Source: Gammaproteobacteria bacterium (lineage in GTDB: Bacteria; Pseudomonadota; Gammaproteobacteria; JAKBBU01). From it: 64,000 nt of DNA. The position numbers and the translations under genes were made by a program. Of this stretch, positions 29,335-50,075 are shown one piece after another (position 1 is the first letter of the stretch; the number at the start of each line of letters is the position of its first letter). Location of the stretch: the NCBI GenBank assembly GCA_021773195.1, contig JAJFKN010000028.1, positions 18,533-82,532 on the forward strand, written 5' to 3'. The notes below the pieces were generated by a model. The model did no database searches. It saw nothing but the letters and a program-made list of their open reading frames with translations, and was not told where the DNA came from.

Positions 29335-30174
29335 ATGTCGAAACGCATTTGTATTATTGGTCTTGGCTTGATGGGAGGCTCTTTGGCCTGCGCAAGCGCA
29401 TCCAGAGATTTGCATATTCATGCTGTTGATCTTGATGCGTCGAGCTTAGAAAAAGCCAAACAAGCGGGCCACATACAAAGTTATGCCACCACCATGGATG
29501 AACAAATACAACATGCAGCACTGATTATACTGGCTGTACCTATGGGCGCCATGGCACAAACCATGCAACGTCTTTACCCTTTTTTGTCCGATGACACCAT
29601 CATCACCGACGTGGGTAGCAGCAAGCAGCGTGTCATGGAAGAAGCAAAGAAATACCTTAAACAACATGCTGCCCGTTTTGTTCCAGGACATCCTCTAGCC
29701 GGTTCAGAAAAGAGCGGTTTTGATGCGGCAATCCCTGGGCTTTTTGCCAACCGGAAAATTGTCTTAACACCCCATGCACAAACCGATGCAAACGCCACAG
29801 CCACGGTGACTGACTTTTGGCAAACACTCAACGCGCAAGTCATCACAGAAGATGCCAAAAAACATGATGAAATTCTAGCGGTAACCAGCCACCTCCCCCA
29901 TATGATTACCTATGGATACATGCCACTCATTGCAGAAGACCCACAACGCTTTAAAAATTTATCGGCCAACGGTTTTCGTGATTTTACCCGCATTGCCGCC
30001 AGCGACCCCACCATGTGGGCTGACATCTGTATCGCCAACCGAGACAATTTATTAACAAGTCTAAAAGCTTTCCAAACAAACTTAGAAGAATTAACCAAAG
30101 CCCTGGAAGAAAAAGACCATGGGACACTTATGGAAGCCATAAGAAAAGCAAAATCCTTATGCACTTCCTCCTAA
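29335..30174 (+). CDS. tyrA: Prephenate/arogenate dehydrogenase (TyrA family)
   Basis: The Rossmann motif ICIIGLGLMGGSLA is present. Length is 279 aa and the gene is translationally coupled to pheA (2-nt gap). Confidence 0.8.
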   Translation: MSKRICIIGLGLMGGSLACASASRDLHIHAVDLDASSLEKAKQAGHIQSYATTMDEQIQHAALIILAVPMGAMAQTMQRLYPFLSDDTIITDVGSSKQRVMEEAKKYLKQHAARFVPGHPLAGSEKSGFDAAIPGLFANRKIVLTPHAQTDANATATVTDFWQTLNAQVITEDAKKHDEILAVTSHLPHMITYGYMPLIAEDPQRFKNLSANGFRDFTRIAASDPTMWADICIANRDNLLTSLKAFQTNLEELTKALEEKDHGTLMEAIRKAKSLCTSS

Positions 30175-40286: not shown

Positions 40287-40976
40287 TTAATTTACAGGGC
40301 AAGCATTAGCCGTTATTTTCAAACCTGATGAAGCTTCATCATGCTTTCCATGGACATTACTATAGTTGTCGAATGAAAAAGGTTTATAACCATCTTGTGG
40401 CGTACCTAAGCTGCCGTCTTGATTGACCAACATGATATTGGTATCTTCAACATCGGTATCAGAGGGGTGACAAGACTCATCCATAAAACCGGCATCAATG
40501 TTATGGTACTTATAGTAAACTTTAAAGGTTTCTACATAAGTCTGACCACCAGTACATTTGTTGTATGCAACAAAATCAATATGCCCTTGAGCGTACCCAT
40601 CTTTTTCATGGGTGTAATATGTGGTACTTGCATCTTTCAAGTTCACTGAATAGGTACGAGCAATACCTAATGGATCTGTATAGTTAAATGCCGAGTCATC
40701 AGTAATTTTCCACTCGTTATCATTGTCACTAGAATCTTCTGCTTCCTGCGTCATGAGATCACCATGCTTATAAGATAATGGGTTAATATTATCGCTTGGT
40801 GATTTTGAGATATCTTTGTCGTCATTCAATTTTTGAACTGTGATGGCTTGGTTCGTGCTATTTGTTACATCCGTATCTATCATCAACTTAGCATTATTAC
40901 AATAACCTGTGGCATACATAGCTGCAGGTAAAGTTAATAGGCCGACAAAACATAATTTTTTTAGGACGTGATTCAT
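40287..40976 (-). CDS. Hypothetical secreted protein (229 aa, Sec signal peptide, 5 Cys)
   Basis: N-terminal MNHVLKKLCFVGLLTLPAAMYA is a typical signal peptide. The mature part is Asp/Asn/Thr/Tyr-rich with no recognisable family. The gene is a monocistronic unit with its own strong terminator and a 360-bp AT-rich upstream region. Confidence 0.5.
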   Translation of the reverse strand: MNHVLKKLCFVGLLTLPAAMYATGYCNNAKLMIDTDVTNSTNQAITVQKLNDDKDISKSPSDNINPLSYKHGDLMTQEAEDSSDNDNEWKITDDSAFNYTDPLGIARTYSVNLKDASTTYYTHEKDGYAQGHIDFVAYNKCTGGQTYVETFKVYYKYHNIDAGFMDESCHPSDTDVEDTNIMLVNQDGSLGTPQDGYKPFSFDNYSNVHGKHDEASSGLKITANACPVN

Positions 40977-41335: not shown

Positions 41336-42910
41336 ATGAAAAAAGGCCGCATTGCCATCATCTGTGTCGCCTTGGTGCTCCTGCTTTTGGGCGCTGGTTA
41401 CTATGCCGTATCTCAGATTAATGTGGAGCGTCTGCGCCCCATCATTGAAAAACACCTACAAACCAATATTGGCTACCCCGTCAAAATAACAGGGGATATA
41501 GAAGTTGCTTATAGCATCATGCCCTCCATTACCGTAGAAGGCGTACAAATCTATAATCCATCCTGGGCTAAGCGCCCTTTGGCTGCCAGTGTGGATCAAT
41601 TGAGGATTCAAATCGCTTTGATTCCATTATTAAAGAATAAACTACAAATCAACGAATTCGCCATAGAAGGCGGCACCATCATTATTGAATATGATAAAAA
41701 TGGCCGAAGTAATTGGCAGCATTTGTTAGAGACCGGGATTAGTCAGAAACAACCTCTAACGCCTAAAGAACTCTATCTAGGCAATACTCAAGTGATCCGT
41801 ATTAATGATAAAAATAATGATGTAAGTCGACTTAACATCGAACGCTTAGCCATTCAGCTCTATTCAACCAAGCAAACCATGGTAGTGAATCTGATTGCAA
41901 GTTATGATCGTTTTCCCTTTCAATTGTCGGGAACGGTTAAAAGCCAAAGCAACCATTTCAATAGTCCTTATCAACTGGACCTAACCCTAAGCTCTGATAA
42001 TTTAGATGCGAACGTGACAGGCACTTATGACCACAATAGCCATACACAAAACTACTGGGTTTTAGCCTCAGGCTTAAGCACTGAAGATTTGAGCCCCATA
42101 TTTCGCGCAGACATTCCGGATTTGGGCCCCTTTCAGGTGGGCATGATTATGCAGCAGGGACCCGACCTATGGACATTTAAAGATATTCAAGCCAACTTAA
42201 TGAAAGGTAAATTACGCGGCAACATCACTTTAAATAATTCAAAAGAAGATACCCAACACAAAATAAAAATGTCAGGACATGGCCTTGATTTACCCGAGGT
42301 ATTTAAGCGTTTACATATCAGCGGAAACTATCATAGCGGTAAATTAGCCTTTAACACAGACCTTACCAGCAAAGGAAATAACTGGGATGATTTCTTAGAA
42401 AGTTTAAATGGCCATGCCATGGTTAACTTCACCAAAACCCATTATGTTAGCCAGGGATTTGCTAGCTACACGGGAGATTTCATTCGAATGTTATCGGGCA
42501 AACACAATGATGAAGTTTATATCAACTGCCTCTTAGTACAAGTATTAATTAATGACGGCATAGTGAAAACCGAAAACATGATCATTAACACCCGAGGTGA
42601 AACCATACTGGGCAAAGGGATTATCAATCTTAAAAACCAATCCATAGACTTAATTATGCGACCACAGGTACGTGGTCTGTCAATAAAACCCCATGCCATA
42701 CCCATTCGGATTACGGGCCCCATTGAAGCGCCCCATGTAGATACCACATTAGCTGGCACCAGTATTGGTACAGGCAAAAAGATTTTAGGCTTAGCCTCAG
42801 GGCAACGTCTCTTTGAATCCATAGAAGCTACTCTTACGGATCCGATGCAAAATCACTCGAAAAATAATGCCTGTCTGAAGATTTTAAAATCCGAACAGTT
42901 AACTCCTTGA
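41336..42910 (+). CDS. AsmA-family protein (outer-membrane biogenesis/lipid-transport-like, N-terminal anchor)
   Basis: 524 aa. An N-terminal TM (IAIICVALVLLLLGAGYY) is followed by a long beta-rich periplasmic region with a repetitive character typical of AsmA-like proteins. The family call rests on architecture only. Confidence 0.55.
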   Translation: MKKGRIAIICVALVLLLLGAGYYAVSQINVERLRPIIEKHLQTNIGYPVKITGDIEVAYSIMPSITVEGVQIYNPSWAKRPLAASVDQLRIQIALIPLLKNKLQINEFAIEGGTIIIEYDKNGRSNWQHLLETGISQKQPLTPKELYLGNTQVIRINDKNNDVSRLNIERLAIQLYSTKQTMVVNLIASYDRFPFQLSGTVKSQSNHFNSPYQLDLTLSSDNLDANVTGTYDHNSHTQNYWVLASGLSTEDLSPIFRADIPDLGPFQVGMIMQQGPDLWTFKDIQANLMKGKLRGNITLNNSKEDTQHKIKMSGHGLDLPEVFKRLHISGNYHSGKLAFNTDLTSKGNNWDDFLESLNGHAMVNFTKTHYVSQGFASYTGDFIRMLSGKHNDEVYINCLLVQVLINDGIVKTENMIINTRGETILGKGIINLKNQSIDLIMRPQVRGLSIKPHAIPIRITGPIEAPHVDTTLAGTSIGTGKKILGLASGQRLFESIEATLTDPMQNHSKNNACLKILKSEQLTP

Positions 42911-42977
42911 TTTTAAATACTAGTTTCCTTATCATCTATAATTAACGGAACCATACTATTATTTAATGGAGTCCCCC

Positions 42978-43202
42978 ATGAACAAGAAAGCCCACATCAT
43001 TGGTGCCGCAGGCCTAGCCATCGCCCTGTCTAGCCTCGGTAATGTTGCAAATGCAGCCAGTAATCCTTTTGCTAGCCAATCTTTGCTAAATCCCTATAAC
43101 CTAAGCAGCAATACAGCAGATAGTACCGAGGGCACTGATGATAAAAGCAAACCTGGCAAATGCGGCAGCGATGGTAAATGCGGCCATGGTTCATGCGGAT
43201 AG
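42978..43202 (+). CDS. Precursor peptide of MNIO (DUF692) RiPP-like system: Sec signal peptide plus C-terminal GKCG-GKCG-GSCG cysteine repeats (HvfA/bufferin-like)
   Basis: An AUG with a GGAG RBS 6 nt upstream gives MNKKAHIIGAAGLAIALSSLGNVANA|ASNP..., a signal peptide with an AxA cleavage site. The mature ~49 aa end in ...KPGKCGSDGKCGHGSCG*. The ORF-track start at 42966 lacks an RBS. The stop overlaps the start of the DUF692 gene. Confidence 0.7.
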   Translation: MNKKAHIIGAAGLAIALSSLGNVANAASNPFASQSLLNPYNLSSNTADSTEGTDDKSKPGKCGSDGKCGHGSCG

Positions 43203-44008
43203 GTCTTGGCTATCGGCGTGAGTTTGCTGAAGATCTTCAAAGGCTATTACCGTCAACTATCGATTTTCTGGAATTAGCTCCAGAGAATTGGATCAAGATA
43301 GGGGGTAAGCGGCAGTGCGAGTTAACTAACTTGCATGAGCATTACCCATTGGTAGCTCATGGGTTGTCCCTTTCTATTGGCGGCCCTCGCCCGCTTAATG
43401 AACCTTTCCTTCAAGAATTAAAAAAGTTCTTTGATCATTATAATATTTCTATCTATACCGAGCACTTGAGCTATTGCGGTGCGAAAAGCCATATTTATGA
43501 TTTATTACCCATGCCTTTTTGTGAAGAAGCCATACACTACATTGCTTCACGCATCCGGCGGGTCGAAGATATATTAGAGCGACCTATTGCCCTAGAAAAT
43601 ATTTCCTACTATGCCACGCCCATGCAAGAGTTGACCGAGTTGGAATTTATCAACGGCATTCTGACGGAGAGCCAATGTGGCTTGCTTTTAGATGTGAATA
43701 ATATTTATGTTAATAGCATCAATCAAAACTATGATGCTAAAACATTTTTAAAAAGCTTAAAGCCAAAACACATTCCCTACATCCATGTAGCAGGCCATAA
43801 TAAACGCTCAGAAGATTTTATTTTAGACAGCCACGGTAGTGATATCATCGACCCTGTATGGGATTTACTGAATTGTGCTTATCAGCAATATGGTCTTTTA
43901 CCCACGGTCCTAGAGCGGGATAATAATATTCCCACATTAAATAGGCTTTTAAAAGAAGTAGACATCATCAGAGATATTCAGACATCCATTGATAAGGGAA
44001 CAGTGTGA
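43193..44008 (+). CDS. DUF692-family multinuclear non-heme iron oxidative (MNIO) enzyme, MbnB/HvfB-like
   Basis: The protein reads MRIGLGYRREF...LAHGLSLSIGG...TEHLSYCG...DLLPMPF...LENISYY...LLLDVNNIYVNS...HVAGH. This matches the conserved block pattern of the DUF692/MbnB TIM-barrel family. An alternative in-frame start at 43178 adds 5 aa. Confidence 0.85.
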   Translation: MRIGLGYRREFAEDLQRLLPSTIDFLELAPENWIKIGGKRQCELTNLHEHYPLVAHGLSLSIGGPRPLNEPFLQELKKFFDHYNISIYTEHLSYCGAKSHIYDLLPMPFCEEAIHYIASRIRRVEDILERPIALENISYYATPMQELTELEFINGILTESQCGLLLDVNNIYVNSINQNYDAKTFLKSLKPKHIPYIHVAGHNKRSEDFILDSHGSDIIDPVWDLLNCAYQQYGLLPTVLERDNNIPTLNRLLKEVDIIRDIQTSIDKGTV

Positions 44009-44760
44009 TGGCTAAGGTCCCTAAATTCATGAAAATCCAGCAGGCGTTTAGTAATGCCGTCTTAGGTTCCGCAGCATGCCCCTTAGAGGTTGACCAAAAT
44101 CACGTTAAAATCTATCGGAATTTAATCCATGAAGGTATGGATGAAATATTAAGAACAAATTTCCCTGTGCTCTATTCCCTATTTAATGAAGAAGACTGGC
44201 AGCAACTCATTAGCCATTTTTTACAAACCCACCCCTGTAAAACCCCTCTCTTTTATGAAATCGCTGAGGAATTTTTAGACTATTTAAATAATGAACGAGA
44301 TTCCAAACAAGATCCGTCTTTCTTGGTGGAGCTAGCTCACTATGAGTGGGTGGAGTTAGCTTTGGACTTACATGAAAATGAAGGGCCTTTTGGCAGCGTA
44401 GATTTATTTAATGACACACTCAGAGTTTCTTCTTTAGCTTGGTTACTGCAATATGACTATCCCGTGCACCGTATCGGCAAGAATTATCAACCCCAGACAA
44501 AACCTCAAGAACCCACTTGGCTTGTGGTTTATCGTGATCGAGCCTTAAACATTGGCTTCTTGGAATTGAATGCCCTTTCAGCTAGATTATTAGCTCTATT
44601 GAAAGAACAGTCCATAACAGGAGAAGAAGCTCTAGCAATTATTGCCACAGAATTACAACATCCTGAACCACAAACACTACAAACCTTCGGTCTGGAACTA
44701 TTGAGCGACTTTCTTGAAAAAGATATTATTCTTGCTGCTTATAAGTCATTTCCCTCTTGA
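44005..44760 (+). CDS. DUF2063-family protein, MbnC/HvfC-like partner subunit of MNIO enzymes
   Basis: The N-terminal region QQAFSNAVLG...KIYRNLIHEGMDEILRTNFPVLYSLF...EIAEEFLDYL fits the DUF2063 pattern (QxxFxxAL...YRNN...FPV). The gene overlaps the DUF692 gene by 4 nt. Confidence 0.8.
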   Translation: MMAKVPKFMKIQQAFSNAVLGSAACPLEVDQNHVKIYRNLIHEGMDEILRTNFPVLYSLFNEEDWQQLISHFLQTHPCKTPLFYEIAEEFLDYLNNERDSKQDPSFLVELAHYEWVELALDLHENEGPFGSVDLFNDTLRVSSLAWLLQYDYPVHRIGKNYQPQTKPQEPTWLVVYRDRALNIGFLELNALSARLLALLKEQSITGEEALAIIATELQHPEPQTLQTFGLELLSDFLEKDIILAAYKSFPS

Positions 44761-45693: not shown

Positions 45694-47193
45694 CTAATCC
45701 ATAATATCCTTGATCTCCCTTTGGAATGATTCAGAAAACAATTTTGATTCCATAGTGTTGATATCATCCGAGAGTAAATGCTCTCCGTTGTAGGGTGGAA
45801 CCCAACTTCGAATTAAATCATGAATGGCCTTTAAACTGGGGTTCAAGCTTAACCCTTCTTGCATATCCATGCCTTGGCATGCCACTAATAGTTCAATAGC
45901 TACAATGTATTTGCAATTTTGTGCCATGCTATGCAAGCGACGTGCTGCGTAACAAGCCATACTCACATGGTCTTCCTGATCCCCTGAGGTGGGAATACTA
46001 TCCACGGATAATGGATGAGCTAAGGCTTTATTCTCACTGACCAAACTAGCCGCTGTCACCTGAGCCATCATGAATCCACAGTTCAAACCTGGATCTTGAG
46101 TTAAAAAGGCGGGTAGACCACTGTGTTTTGCATCCATCAGTAGAGCAATACGGCGCTCACTCAAGGATCCTAACTCTGCCAATGCCAGCGCCATATTATC
46201 GGCCGCGAAGGCTATAGCTTCACCGTGAAAGTTGCCACCTGAGAGAATGCGATGCTTCTTTCTGTGTACAATGGGATTATCAGAAATACCATTCACTTCC
46301 CGCAGCACAAGATCCAAAGCATTCTGCCATTGGTCCCAACAGGCACCCATCACTTGAGGTTGGCAACGGATAGAGTATGGGGCCTGAATGTGATTTCCCT
46401 CAGTATGTTTAACTGCACAGCCTTTTAAGAGGTTATTAAAATAACTATTTACTTGTTGCTGGCCTTTTTGGTCATGCAATGCATTTAATAACTTATCAAA
46501 AGCTTCTTGATTAGCATTCACGGCTAAGGTTGAGAAACTCCCCACTAAGATAGCCATTTTTATTAACTGCTCTAATTCAAAGGCCCCCTGCCAAGCCAGA
46601 GCCGTAGAGACTTGAAGACCATTAATTAATGCTAAACCTTCCTTAGGCGCTAATATTATTTTTGTAAAATCCGCTGCACTGGCTGGCACTACCTCATGGC
46701 TACCCATGACATGACCATGACCCAATAATACACTGGCCATATGTGCCAAGGGGGCTAAGTCGCCAGAAGCGCCCACGGACCCTTGGCTAGGAATCAGAGG
46801 CAATAGGTCTTCATTATATAATGTTGTTAACCCATGAACTAACTCCGGCCGAACACCCGAATAACCTTGTGCCAACGTATTTATTTTAAGAATCAAAATT
46901 AAACGCACCAAGGATTTTGAAAATGGCTTACCCACGCCACAGCTGTGTGAAAAAATCAAATTACGTTGCAAGGTTTCCCAGTCATCTCTACCGATAGGGA
47001 AATTATCAAAGTCGCCAAAACCATGATTAACGCCATAAACGGCTTGTGAATCTAAAGCTGATAATAAAAATTCATGGTCGGCGTTTAAATGCTTATCTAA
47101 ACCACGGGGCAAGGCAATATACACGCCACCTTTTTGCAGATATTGCAAATCTTCATGAGTCAATTTTCCGGGTTTTAGTTTCCATGATTTCAT
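45694..47193 (-). CDS. hutH: Histidine ammonia-lyase
   Basis: The MIO-forming GASGDLAPLAHMA motif is present. Length is 499 aa and the gene is the last of the hutUI-H cluster. Confidence 0.93.
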   Translation of the reverse strand: MKSWKLKPGKLTHEDLQYLQKGGVYIALPRGLDKHLNADHEFLLSALDSQAVYGVNHGFGDFDNFPIGRDDWETLQRNLIFSHSCGVGKPFSKSLVRLILILKINTLAQGYSGVRPELVHGLTTLYNEDLLPLIPSQGSVGASGDLAPLAHMASVLLGHGHVMGSHEVVPASAADFTKIILAPKEGLALINGLQVSTALAWQGAFELEQLIKMAILVGSFSTLAVNANQEAFDKLLNALHDQKGQQQVNSYFNNLLKGCAVKHTEGNHIQAPYSIRCQPQVMGACWDQWQNALDLVLREVNGISDNPIVHRKKHRILSGGNFHGEAIAFAADNMALALAELGSLSERRIALLMDAKHSGLPAFLTQDPGLNCGFMMAQVTAASLVSENKALAHPLSVDSIPTSGDQEDHVSMACYAARRLHSMAQNCKYIVAIELLVACQGMDMQEGLSLNPSLKAIHDLIRSWVPPYNGEHLLSDDINTMESKLFSESFQREIKDIMD

Positions 47194-47197
47194 TGCA

Positions 47198-48856
47198 TCA
47201 CCGCTTCTTAATCATTGGTAGTTTAAGACCATTAGCTTTAGCGCAGTCTATAGCATCAGTATAGCCTGCATCACAATGACGCATAACAGCTGTAGCAGGG
47301 TCATTGCTTAACACCCGTTGTAGACGGCCTTCAGCAGCTTCACTGCCATCGGCTACCACCACGAATCCCGCATGTTGTGAATACCCCATGCCTACACCAC
47401 CCCCATGATGGATACTCACCCATGTAGCACCGCTAGCACAATTCAATAAAGCATTTAATAAAGGCCAATCCGATACAGCATCGGAACCATCTAACATACC
47501 TTCTGTCTCACGATTAGGGCTTGCTACAGAGCCCCCGTCCAAGTGATCACGCCCGATGACAATGGGTGCCTTTAATTCTCCCCGGGCTACCATTTGATTA
47601 AAAACAACGCCTATTAAGGCACGATGCTGTAAGCCTAACCAGCATATACGTGCTGGCAAGCCTTGGAAGGGAATACGCTCTCTCGCCAAATCTAGCCAGC
47701 GATGTAAATGAGTATCTTCGGGTATTAATTGTTTCACCACCTCATCGGTTTTATAAATATCACTTTTCTCTCCCGACAAAGCCACCCAGCGAAAAGGACC
47801 TATACCCTGACAAAACTGAGGACGAATATAAGCGGGCACAAAACCTGGAATATCAAAAGCATCCTTCACCCCCATATCCAAGGCCATCTGTCGTATATTA
47901 TTCCCATAATCGAAGACAGGTATGCCTCGTCGATGAAATTGCAACATGGCTTCTACCTGTATCGCCATGGACTTTTTAGCTTCTTGAATAACATACTGGG
48001 GTTTATCTATACGTAGCGCCTTTGCTTGCATCAAGGACCAACCTGATGGTAGGTAACCATTTAGAGGATCGTGAGCACTGGTCTGATCCGTTACTAAATG
48101 AGGTTGTACTTCACCCATGGCAATGGCGGGAAAAATTTCTGCGGCATTACCCAATAACGCCACTGAAATGGCTTTACCCTTGAGGCAAGCTTCTTGAATT
48201 CGGGCCAATGCCACAGTTAACTCTTTTTCAATGTAATCCACATAGCCCATGGATTTACGCCGTTGTATATGTTCCGAATCACATTCCACCACCAACATAC
48301 TGGCGCCGGCCATGGTGGCAGCCAATGGTTGAGCCCCTCCCATGCCACCTAACCCTGCACTCAAAATCCATTTACCTTGTAAGGTCCCGTTATAATGTTG
48401 GCGTGCTGCTTCACAGAAAGTTTCATAAGTGCCTTGAATAATGCCTTGGCTACCGATATAGATCCAAGACCCTGCGGTCATTTGTCCATACATCATTAGG
48501 CCTTTGGCATCTAATTCATTAAAATGCTCCCAGGTAGCCCAATGGGGCACTAAGTTAGAATTAGCTAACAATACCCGAGGGGCATCAACGTGAGTTCTCA
48601 TGACACCTACGGGCTTACCCGATTGAATTAATAATGTTTCATCACATTCCAGTGTTTTGAGGCAATCCACGATGGCGTGGTAACAATCCCAGTTACGCGC
48701 CGCTTTGCCTACACCACCATAAACAATCAATTCATCGGGATTTTCAGCTACATCAGGATCTAGATTATTCATTAACATGCGCATGGGTGCTTCTGTTAAC
48801 CAACTTTTAGCTATCAGTTGAGAGCCTCTTGCTGCTTTAATGAGTTTATTTGACAT
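47198..48856 (-). CDS. hutU: Urocanate hydratase
   Basis: 552 aa, urocanase family. A glycine-rich NAD-binding region ([10 protein letters not shown]) and conserved C-terminal region are present. Confidence 0.95.
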
Positions 48857-50075
48857 GGCTTACCTTCCCATGCTTGACCACTTGATAACAGGGATTTCCC
48901 CCCAGGGTAGAACATAATTCTCCGGGACTATGACAATCCCATAAAACAAAATCCGCCATTTTCCCAACTTCTATACTACCGTAATCTTTTTCTATGCCTA
49001 AAGCACATGCACCATTATAAGTAAAACCACGTAAGGCTTCCTCTACAGTTAAAGCGTATTGCACACAAGCCAAAGATAATAATGACAACGGTGATATTAA
49101 GGGAGATGTTCCAGGATTACAGTCTGAGGCGATAGCCATTGATACATTGTATTGACGCAACAGATCTAAAGGCGGTTTTTCTCGTTGTTGCAAAAAATAG
49201 CTAGCCCCAGGTAATAGAACCGGCATAGTTTTACTTTTGGCTAAAGCAATCAAATCCTTTTCTTCAGCGAATTCTAAGTGATCTACCGATAACGCATTGT
49301 ACTTTAAGGCCAATTGAATGCCTTGGCTAGCGGATAGTTGATGAGTATGTAATTTCACCGGCAATCCATGCTGTTTCGCGCAGGAAAATAAAACCTCAAT
49401 GGCCTCACAAGAAAATGCCAACTCATCACAAAATCCATCCACCGCATCAACCAGATCTTCATGGACTAGTATGGGCAATACTTCTTGGCACATAAAATCC
49501 AGGTACGTCTGAACGTCACGGAATTCCTTTGGCAAGACATGGGCACCCAAATAACTGGTTTTAATGGTCAATGGTAAAATATCACCTAACTTTCTTGCTA
49601 AGATCAATTGTTTCTTTTCCGTCTCTAAATCCAACCCATAACCTGATTTTATTTCTAATGTGGTTACCCCTTCTAAATGCATACAGCGTGCGCGTTTTTC
49701 ACAAAGTTGCAACAGTTCATGAAAGCTGGCAGCCCTAGTATCTCGCACTGTGGCATGAATTCCCCCACCTGCTTGCAAAATCGCTTGGTAACTTTCACCC
49801 TGAATTCGTCGTTGGAATTCTTCTTCCCGAGAACCGGCATAAACTAAATGAGTATGACAGTCCACAAAACCTGGCGTCATTAAGCGACCTTCAACTGAGA
49901 TTTCTTGTTTGACTTGTTGTCGCATAGCTTGCGGTATGTCTTTCATCAGACCCAACCAGACAATACGACCTTCTCGCACAACCAAACCTGCATCGTCTAT
50001 TATTTCAAACGCAGCTTGAGGGGCTAAGCTAAGAATACGGGCATTTACCCAAAGGCTGTCATAGTCATTATTCAA
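48846..50075 (-). CDS. hutI: Imidazolonepropionase
   Basis: 409 aa, metal-dependent amidohydrolase with the HTH metal motif ([14 protein letters not shown]). It lies upstream of hutU. Confidence 0.93.

Follow-up and report, generated by a model that had tools for sequence, protein, structure and literature searches.

Genes and features at the locus

The window, by which we mean the whole stretch of 64 kb that was analysed (43% GC), contains a small gene on the forward strand that lies directly upstream of the genes for an HvfB-type MNIO and its DUF2063/RRE (PME1) partner, and the three genes are contiguous and overlapping. The features are as follows.

42907..42935, forward strand: candidate sigma-70-like promoter, TTGATT-17-TATCAT, from a consensus scan (9/12 matches), in the 67-nt gap after an asmA-like gene
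42968..42971, forward strand: Shine-Dalgarno sequence GGAG, 6 nt 5' of the precursor ATG (-5.9 kcal/mol with the 16S 3' end)
42978..43202, forward strand: hvfA-like precursor gene, 74 aa and then TAG at 43200-43202; sequence MNKKAHIIGAAGLAIALSSLGNVANAASNPFASQSLLNPYNLSSNTADSTEGTDDKSKPGKCGSDGKCGHGSCG
42978..43055, forward strand: Sec-type signal peptide, residues 1-26 (MNKK, a hydrophobic core, then ANA before AS), which aligns with the signal region of canonical HvfA precursors
43062..43103, forward strand: conserved post-signal segment NPFASQSLLNPYNL (family consensus NPFAMtELssGYm), covered by the Cys-free N-terminal profile
43152..43199, forward strand: core PGKCG-S-DGKCG-HGSCG, with Cys codons at 43161-43163, 43179-43181 and 43194-43196
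43191..43221, forward strand: predicted RNA hairpin, tentative, with the hvfB AUG 43193 and the precursor UAG in its 5' arm
43193..44008 (alternative start 43178), forward strand: hvfB, an HvfB-family MNIO (NF003818, 384.8 bits against a cut-off of 360; PF05114, 9.7e-97)
44008..44760, forward strand: hvfC, the partner protein (NF050145, 263.2 bits against a cut-off of 142; PF09836 (DUF2063) and PF22106 (NGO1945-type, with an RRE-type C-domain))

The small ORF at 42978-43202 is a real gene. A protein identical to its 74-aa product is present in public gene calls (NCBI and Logan), and the gene is also called on an SRA-derived contig. The earlier note had placed the start at the RBS-supported AUG 42978, and this start is borne out both by the GGAG upstream and by the identical product in the public calls. 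The duplex energy of this Shine-Dalgarno sequence with the anti-SD is reached by about 4% of random window positions. The alternative in-frame ATG at 42966 overlaps the GGAG and is without an SD of its own (-3.5 kcal/mol). As for transcription, the promoter candidate is weak evidence, because ten such sigma-70-like sites were seen in the region by the consensus scan against 6.3 expected.

The N-terminal part of the product is a Sec signal for signal peptidase I, as judged from the signal anatomy and the profile alignment. The n-region MNKK carries a charge of +2, the hydrophobicity of the core is highest at residues 7-17 (Kyte-Doolittle 2.5), and ANA at residues 24-26, followed by AS, satisfies the -3/-1 rule. 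The scan of the signal anatomy found neither a lipobox Cys nor a twin-arginine motif in the signal region. Moreover, the predicted cleavage site aligns with the A-x-A directly before NPF in homologues. Thus, the Sec signal with an AxA cleavage site, as read in the earlier note, agrees with the n/h/c anatomy and with the alignment to canonical precursors. The predicted mature peptide has 48 aa and a pI of about 5.5. When HvfA itself is expressed in E. coli, it is exported via Sec and cleaved by signal peptidase I (PMC11252979), and a Sec signal instead of a leader peptide has been described as characteristic of bufferins and oxazolins (PMC12452194).

The genes on both sides are unrelated to this cluster. 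The upstream neighbour encodes an AsmA-family protein and the downstream one an AmiA/AmiC-type amidase. Of three further ORFs on the minus strand at 45694-50075, homology identifies the middle one as urocanate hydratase (about 75% identity to many taxa), and the outer two, read by eye, we tentatively take to be hutH and hutI. No second MNIO or HvfC is present elsewhere in the 64-kb window, and an Rfam search of the same 64 kb gave no rRNA and no other match. A DoxX (HvfX) gene is a frequent but not universal associate of the family, and tblastn with two DoxX proteins of related loci found none in the 64-kb window.

Family membership of the precursor and its partner proteins

Both partner genes are assigned above the cut-offs of their families. 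The window HvfB matches PDB 3BWW at E 1.9e-70 and falls below the cut-offs of the BufB, ApyH, ChrH and MbnB models; its scores are 253.3 bits against a cut-off of 310 for BufB (NF050167) and 28.6 bits against 325 for MbnB (TIGR04159). It keeps every column that is invariant in an alignment of 20 sequences, which is true by definition as the window protein is one of them. Among these residues are H56, H91, E135, D167, N170, H198, D212, H214, E241 and D243, and they include the ERD catalytic motif and the His, Asp, Glu and Asn columns expected for metal ligands. The score and the conserved residues place the protein in the HvfB family, with one exception, namely Asn after the catalytic Asp, where Phe is usual. 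HvfC has the DUF2063 N-domain and the NGO1945-type C-domain of its family and matches PDB 3DEE at E 1.3e-6.

The precursor is more divergent. It has no family match in Pfam and NCBIfam at default thresholds, and its core reaches 9.9 bits (E 0.56) on the NCBIfam HvfA model NF050137 ('KCGExKCG_twice'), below the cut-off of 19.5. The repeated EGKCG on which this model is built does not occur, there being zero exact EGKCG in the precursor, while a looser definition of the class, a 5-mer repeat containing Lys-Cys (PMC13097082), is satisfied by two of its sites. Current HvfA annotation models thus miss the window precursor, and therefore such precursors are likely labelled hypothetical.

The relationship becomes visible outside the Cys motifs. 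We extracted precursors upstream of HvfB relatives at the 80 genomic loci listed, most of which have a precursor with signal, NPF and (E)GKCG at this position, and made a profile from the Cys-free N-terminal parts only (signal peptide and NPFAMxELssGYm) of the canonical ones. This profile matched the window precursor with 25.3 bits (E 1e-7) in a set of 206 sequences, consisting of 204 window ORFs and two copies of the precursor. The runner-up among the window ORFs, at 29910-30140 on the minus strand (11.4 bits), was considered as a second precursor and rejected; it lies antisense inside a 279-aa ORF at 29335-30174 on the plus strand. The homology of the precursor covers the NPFxMxELxxGYM segment. 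A phmmer search against 1.84 billion representatives gave 23 proteins at E<=1e-3, the query included, and all 20 of the retrieved matches are HvfA-like (signal, NPF and (E)GKCG), the best with 54% identity. A word-indexed protein search with the precursor returned the precursor itself as the sole match.

Because the Cys-free N-terminal part matches the HvfA profile, we regard the precursor as a divergent HvfA/oxazolin ('captophorin', Lys-Cys group). As read from its sequence and setting, 42978-43202 is most probably the precursor of a minimal three-gene hvfABC-type RiPP cluster of this group (oxazolin / 'captophorin'). It is highly improbable that the ORF encodes an unrelated secreted peptide, or is a chance ORF, that HvfBC does not act on. 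The null result with Pfam and NCBIfam at default thresholds would fit such an ORF, but the N-terminal profile match, the HvfA-like proteins recovered by the exhaustive phmmer search, the X-Cys-Gly sites at the C-terminus and the strong SD all speak against it, as does the position of the ORF directly upstream of hvfBC, which is the usual one at family loci. The earlier note had also set the product beside HvfA and the bufferins rather than the leader-cleaved methanobactin. This kinship is supported by HvfB and HvfC scores above the cut-offs, by the MbnB score of 28.6 against 325 and by the HvfA profile match. Neither the marks of methanobactin (an MbnB score, an MbnA-type leader and core) nor those of bufferins (DUF2282, a BufB score) were found.

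Cys motifs, precursor length and gene overlap

The three Cys of the precursor, at residues 62, 68 and 73, stand in PGKCG, DGKCG and HGSCG, so that the GKCG/GKCG/GSCG peptide motifs reported before are indeed present. On the other hand, the DNA units had been described as near-identical and tandem, and a change of the Cys number by slippage had been proposed; neither view is supported at this locus. Tandem Repeats Finder detected nothing at score >=30 on the precursor locus. The repeat search found only two 13-nt copies, TGGYAAATGCGGC, which are 92% identical and 18 nt apart, and by direct reading the third unit, GGTTCATGCGGA, agrees with the second at 8/12 bases and begins 15 nt further on, so that the spacings are unequal. 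With the codon usage of the window, at least three of four identical codons for the same GKCG peptide are expected with P of about 0.2, and the 12-mer pattern GGYAAATGCGGC, allowing one mismatch or none, occurs at least twice in 21 of 100 window shuffles, hence it is not enriched. Since the repeat finder gave nothing, the codon identity is as expected and the pattern is not above shuffles, the GKCG repeat is a protein-level family motif. The peptide motif accounts for the similarity of the DNA units, which gives no indication of a recent duplication or of slippage at this locus.

The idea of slippage nevertheless holds for the family, because the DNA of many canonical relatives does contain true tandem arrays (periods of 15-117 nt, 2-6 copies, TRF scores as high as 654). 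Repeat-number evolution is thus real in the HvfA family, and the window locus lies at its bottom end with vestigial units only. A comparison of homologues, which had been suggested as a check for copy-number variation, bears this out at the family level, where the number of Cys varies from 2 to 14, but not among close relatives, as none exist: the nearest relatives of the window proteins have 54% identity for the precursor and 62% for HvfB.

The count of three Cys had been regarded as odd against modification in pairs or in sets of four to six. However, the number of Cys is odd in 21 of 66 family precursors (exactly three in 3 of them), and fontiphorin carries seven 5-thiooxazoles, each Lys-Cys site being modified independently with a loss of 4 Da apiece (PMC13097082). 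The authors of that work suspect that EGKCG peptides bind copper in a stochastic or network-like way and not strictly in pairs (PMC13097082). The odd count is therefore unremarkable. With regard to spacing, one interval of the precursor is C-x4-C, which dominates in the family, and the other is C-x5-C, outside the eight commonest.

What is peculiar to the precursor is its compactness. With 74 aa it is the shortest, its 66 relatives spanning 77-225 aa, and its tail after the last Cys is one residue against at least two in these relatives. The first ATG of the hvfB frame is at 43178, immediately behind a TAA at 43175-43177, and a second in-frame ATG follows at 43193. The precursor TAG lies inside this frame, and the overlap is 10 nt from 43193 or 25 nt from 43178, in agreement with the earlier note, which had the precursor stop embedded in the MNIO start with AUG at either position. 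Both hvfB ATGs are formed by the Lys/Ser-Cys-Gly codons of the precursor, as AA-ATG-CGG at 43178 (codons of Lys67-Cys68) and as TC-ATG-CGG at 43193 (codons of Ser72-Cys73). The start at 43193 is the choice of the public gene calls and is nearer the precursor stop, while 43178 would give an 8-residue N-terminus that is common in the nearest homologues; the N-terminal residues of HvfB are not conserved among homologues. The distance between the precursor stop and the first conserved HvfB Gly codon is -1 nt, the minimum among the 69 loci listed (median 96, next smallest 26), and the window protein has three residues before GLGxR against a median of 11.

This compactness raises the question of decay, in which a deletion between a longer hvfA repeat and the 5' end of hvfB would have removed the spacer between the two genes, the C-terminal tail and most of the repeats and left a crippled or partly processed remnant precursor. 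The extreme values for precursor length (74 aa against 77-225 aa, n=66), tail (1 against >=2), gap (-1 nt against a median of 96 at the 69 loci listed) and HvfB N-terminus (3 residues against a median of 11) fit with it, as do the core score below the cut-off of the HvfA model, the Pro at position 1 of the first motif and the lack of a DoxX gene within the window. Nevertheless, HvfB and HvfC are full length, score above the equivalog cut-offs and keep every invariant residue, and the precursor still has its signal peptide intact, its NPF segment and a strong SD. Moreover, precursors with two or three Cys are known in other lineages, two Pseudoalteromonas HvfB proteins have equally short annotated N-termini, and a past deletion would be compatible with present function. 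We therefore consider a decaying remnant quite unlikely and retain the reading of a functional, minimal precursor.

The overlap also bears on the translation of hvfB. The SD energies of its two ATGs (-3.3 and -2.8 kcal/mol) are no better than random, as 29% of random positions reach -3 kcal/mol. Since hvfB has no RBS of its own and its start codon lies inside precursor codons, its translation is probably coupled to termination of the precursor. The tentative hairpin at 43191..43221 is of modest significance; the 101-nt fold around it has a z of -2.3, and 3 of 200 shuffles fold as well. Similar arrangements are seen in relatives, one of which (L084) has a TAATG overlap of the precursor and enzyme genes, and in two others a perfect hairpin lies between these genes. 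At the next junction, the hvfB stop and the hvfC start overlap in TGATG (44006-44010) according to the sequence and the gene call, which agree on the hvfC start. Termination-reinitiation coupling is the most economical reading of this geometry, the lack of an hvfB SD and the hairpin, and is plausible. Of the translational coupling claimed in the earlier note, the overlap and its setting stand, including the TGATG of hvfB and hvfC, and make coupling plausible, while the coupling itself is an inference from the sequence.

Expected product and comparison with known systems

HvfBC, FonBC and NgoBC convert Cys in X-Cys-Gly to 5-thiooxazole, and the earlier oxazolone/thioamide assignment of oxazolin has now been revised to this structure (PMC13097082; bioRxiv 10.64898/2026.07.17.739211). 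Oxazolin, fontiphorin and gonophorin all bear 5-thiooxazoles and bind copper (PMC13097082), and in HvfA all six EGKCG Cys are modified and the signal is cleaved (PMC11252979). By homology with these systems, the window locus most likely works in the following way. The 74-aa precursor would be translated from its own strong RBS, and in the cytoplasm the iron oxidase HvfB together with HvfC would convert Cys62, Cys68 and Cys73, each in X-Cys-Gly, to 5-thiooxazoles with a loss of 4 Da each. Sec export and a cut by signal peptidase I after Ala26 would then leave a mildly acidic, probably disordered periplasmic peptide of 48 aa. The thiooxazole thiolates, perhaps together with His70, may bind Cu(I) and buffer copper stress. 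As judged from the gene geometry, coupling of hvfB translation to termination of the precursor would yield far less enzyme than substrate.

The number of modified Cys can be estimated from the substrate rules of FonBC, which acts only where position 4 is Cys and position 5 is Gly or Ala. At position 3 it accepts Ala, Arg or Thr, and it fully processes DGKCG, but Pro at any position and Arg at position 1 are rejected (PMC13097082). Its minimal substrate needs two repeats, one being insufficient (PMC13097082). In the window peptide, Gly follows Cys at all three sites and Lys precedes it at two of three. The second site, DGKCG, is a proven FonBC motif, and Ser at position 3 of the third resembles the tolerated Thr and Ala. 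Cys62 may be poorly modified, because PGKCG has Pro at position 1 and such a motif is not processed by FonBC (PMC13097082). Two to three thiooxazoles are thus expected, since DGKCG is proven, HGSCG resembles tolerated sites and PGKCG has Pro, and the expected capacity would be one to two Cu(I), possibly with His70. Histidines also stand in the His-rich GHKCGHGKCG motifs of a near relative. The rules of FonBC may not transfer, however, because the window HvfB has Asn at the equivalent of Phe250.

This residue deserves attention. Phe follows the catalytic Asp in 111 of the 120 closest HvfB homologues, and the nine without Phe include the window protein (Asn244) and several of its nearest relatives. 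A possible, though rather unlikely, view is that the window HvfB belongs to a functional sub-group with Asn, Asp, Thr or Glu at this position and with altered substrate gating, which acts on Glu-less motifs (xGKCG, GSCG, AKCG, HKCG) and whose metal or product properties may differ from those of oxazolin. FonB Phe250 controls the tolerance around Cys (PMC13097082), and Glu occupies position 1 in 370 of 486 Cys 5-mers at Phe loci against 2 of 37 at non-Phe loci, counts that ignore shared ancestry and are not independent, because the non-Phe loci are probably one or few clades. The few clades weaken this view, as does the way in which Asn244 was equated with FonB Phe250, via the conserved ERD-F motif and not by alignment to FonB; moreover, the chemistry is probably 5-thiooxazole still. 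The co-variation between loss of Phe and loss of position-1 Glu is suggestive. If it holds phylogenetically, the published specificity rules would be extended.

A further step would be a distinct HvfB sub-lineage (Phe to Asn, Asp, Thr or Glu) that co-evolved with Glu-less, short precursors of the His/Ser-containing or lipoprotein type, in which translation of the precursor dictates enzyme synthesis. On this account, enzyme synthesis would be strictly slaved to precursor translation, because the start codon is made from the codons of the last modified Cys and is sequestered in the hairpin, and among natural captophorins the peptide, with its 48 aa and three sites, would be the smallest. We consider this unlikely, and continue with the reading as a divergent member of the HvfA/oxazolin group.

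Methanobactin (MbnA/MbnB/MbnC) resembles the window system in that an MNIO turns, or would turn, Cys residues of a ribosomal peptide into a copper ligand, but it has a cleaved leader and not a Sec signal, oxazolone/thioamide chemistry, and MbnC instead of DUF2063 as the partner. Bufferins (BufA1/DUF2282, BufA2, BufBC) are closer in being Sec-exported, MNIO-modified thiooxazole peptides for copper buffering with a DUF2063 partner, all of which may apply to the window system; unlike them, the window precursor has no DUF2282 match, its enzyme is below the BufB cut-off and its Cys context is Lys-Cys-Gly.

The HvfA/oxazolin system of nontypeable Haemophilus influenzae (hvfABC and the DoxX-like hvfX) has in common with the window a Sec signal with no cleaved leader, C-terminal X-Gly-Lys-Cys-Gly sites, and a gene directly upstream of those for the HvfB MNIO and HvfC (DUF2063/RRE). 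The expected product would likewise be a periplasmic or secreted Cu(I)-binding 5-thiooxazole peptide. HvfA is 95 aa long, has six modified Cys in three AEGKCGEGKCG units and also an N-terminal disulfide (PMC11252979), in contrast to the window peptide, whose 74 aa contain three Cys but no exact EGKCG and end with the last Cys-Gly. DoxX is also absent from the window, unlike H. influenzae hvfABC-hvfX. The precursor and enzyme genes of the window overlap.

The fontiphorin cluster fonABC of Fontimonas thermophila is like the window locus a three-gene cluster (precursor, MNIO and PME1 partner) without DoxX (PMC13097082), and both have the Lys-Cys group motif and an odd number of Cys (seven modified in fontiphorin). 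On the other hand, FonA is longer with seven sites of the EGKCG type, the counterpart in FonB of the window enzyme's Asn244 is Phe250, and Pro at position 1, as in the first window site, is not tolerated by FonBC (PMC13097082).

About half of the Pseudomonadota reference genomes contain HvfBC-type clusters, which have been linked to copper stress and virulence (PMC13097082, PMC11252979), and a survey of the MNIO landscape found hundreds of small signal-peptide ORFs with 1-18 Cys before such MNIO genes (PMC12452194). The locus leaves this general picture unchanged. The window precursor adds a new member, minimal and divergent yet largely ordinary, to a RiPP class that was characterised recently but well. 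As a naturally minimal substrate, with a 48-aa mature peptide, three close sites and Ser-Cys-Gly at the very C-terminus, it could suit mechanistic or structural work on thiooxazole formation.

Residue 244 of HvfB and the first position of the precursor motif

The MNIO enzyme HvfB carries Asn at position 244 (codon 43922-43924), directly after the catalytic Asp of the ERD motif, where 111 of the 120 homologues have Phe. Among the related loci, non-Phe HvfB accompanies precursors without Glu at the first position of the Cys motif, an association that is uncorrected for phylogeny. Glu occupied this position in 2 of 37 cases with a non-Phe enzyme versus 370 of 486 with a Phe enzyme.

Gene junctions and surrounding ORFs in the window

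The hvfB stop TGA shares bases with the hvfC start ATG in the sequence TGATG (44006-44010), and therefore overlaps chain all three genes of the cluster. The gene call starts hvfC at ATG 44008; the 251-aa product that would start from GTG 44005 was absent from the public collection. At the junction of the precursor and hvfB, a hairpin is predicted, whose 5' arm contains both the hvfB AUG (43193) and the precursor UAG. The 101-nt fold containing this hairpin gave z = -2.3. Rfam returned zero matches across the entire window.

Features of the window:
43191-43221, predicted RNA hairpin with arms UCAUGC.GAUAG / CUAUC.GCGUGA
40287-40976 (-), ORF of 229 aa with a signal-peptide-like N-terminus, between a putative coaD and an asmA-like gene
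45694-50075 (-), three consecutive ORFs

One neighbor of the 229-aa ORF is what we take by eye to be coaD. The middle ORF of the three (47198-48856, minus strand) is urocanate hydratase by homology, with about 75% identity to many unrelated taxa and hence no taxonomic signal, and the outer two are presumably hutH and hutI, as read by eye.

Unusual precursors and acidic segments in related loci

Several loci encoding HvfB relatives differ in precursor type or gene order.

L086 1217-1444 and L087 1183-1431, lipoprotein-type precursors with lipobox LTSC and AKCG motifs, without the NPF segment
L082 931-1215 and L089 1-168, Cys-rich precursors, with a Na+/H+ exchanger gene between precursor and hvfB

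In both L086 and L087, the precursor gene and hvfB flank a perfect inverted repeat, a DoxX gene comes after hvfC, and HvfB has Asn at the same position as Asn244 of the window. The L082 precursor bears His-rich GHKCGHGKCG motifs. No recognizable precursor ORF was found in the 170-nt gap (L085 2330-2501) upstream of a near HvfB relative (P0018), whose precursor may be encoded elsewhere or missing.

The L022 record is titled 'uncultured Halobacteria archaeon', yet its hvfABC locus is typical of the gammaproteobacterial type; its HvfB is 57% identical to that of the window, and the archaeal title probably reflects mistaken binning or labelling at the source.

Some precursors (L017, L022, L045, L077, L078; proteins P0127 and P0128) possess acidic Asp/Gly-rich segments, e.g. 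DADGDGKITRDEF, which are placed between or after the EGKCG blocks. By appearance, these segments resemble EF-hand calcium loops. An EF-hand-fused Buf_EGKCG precursor type has been described (PMC12452194), and the acidic-segment precursors may belong to this type.
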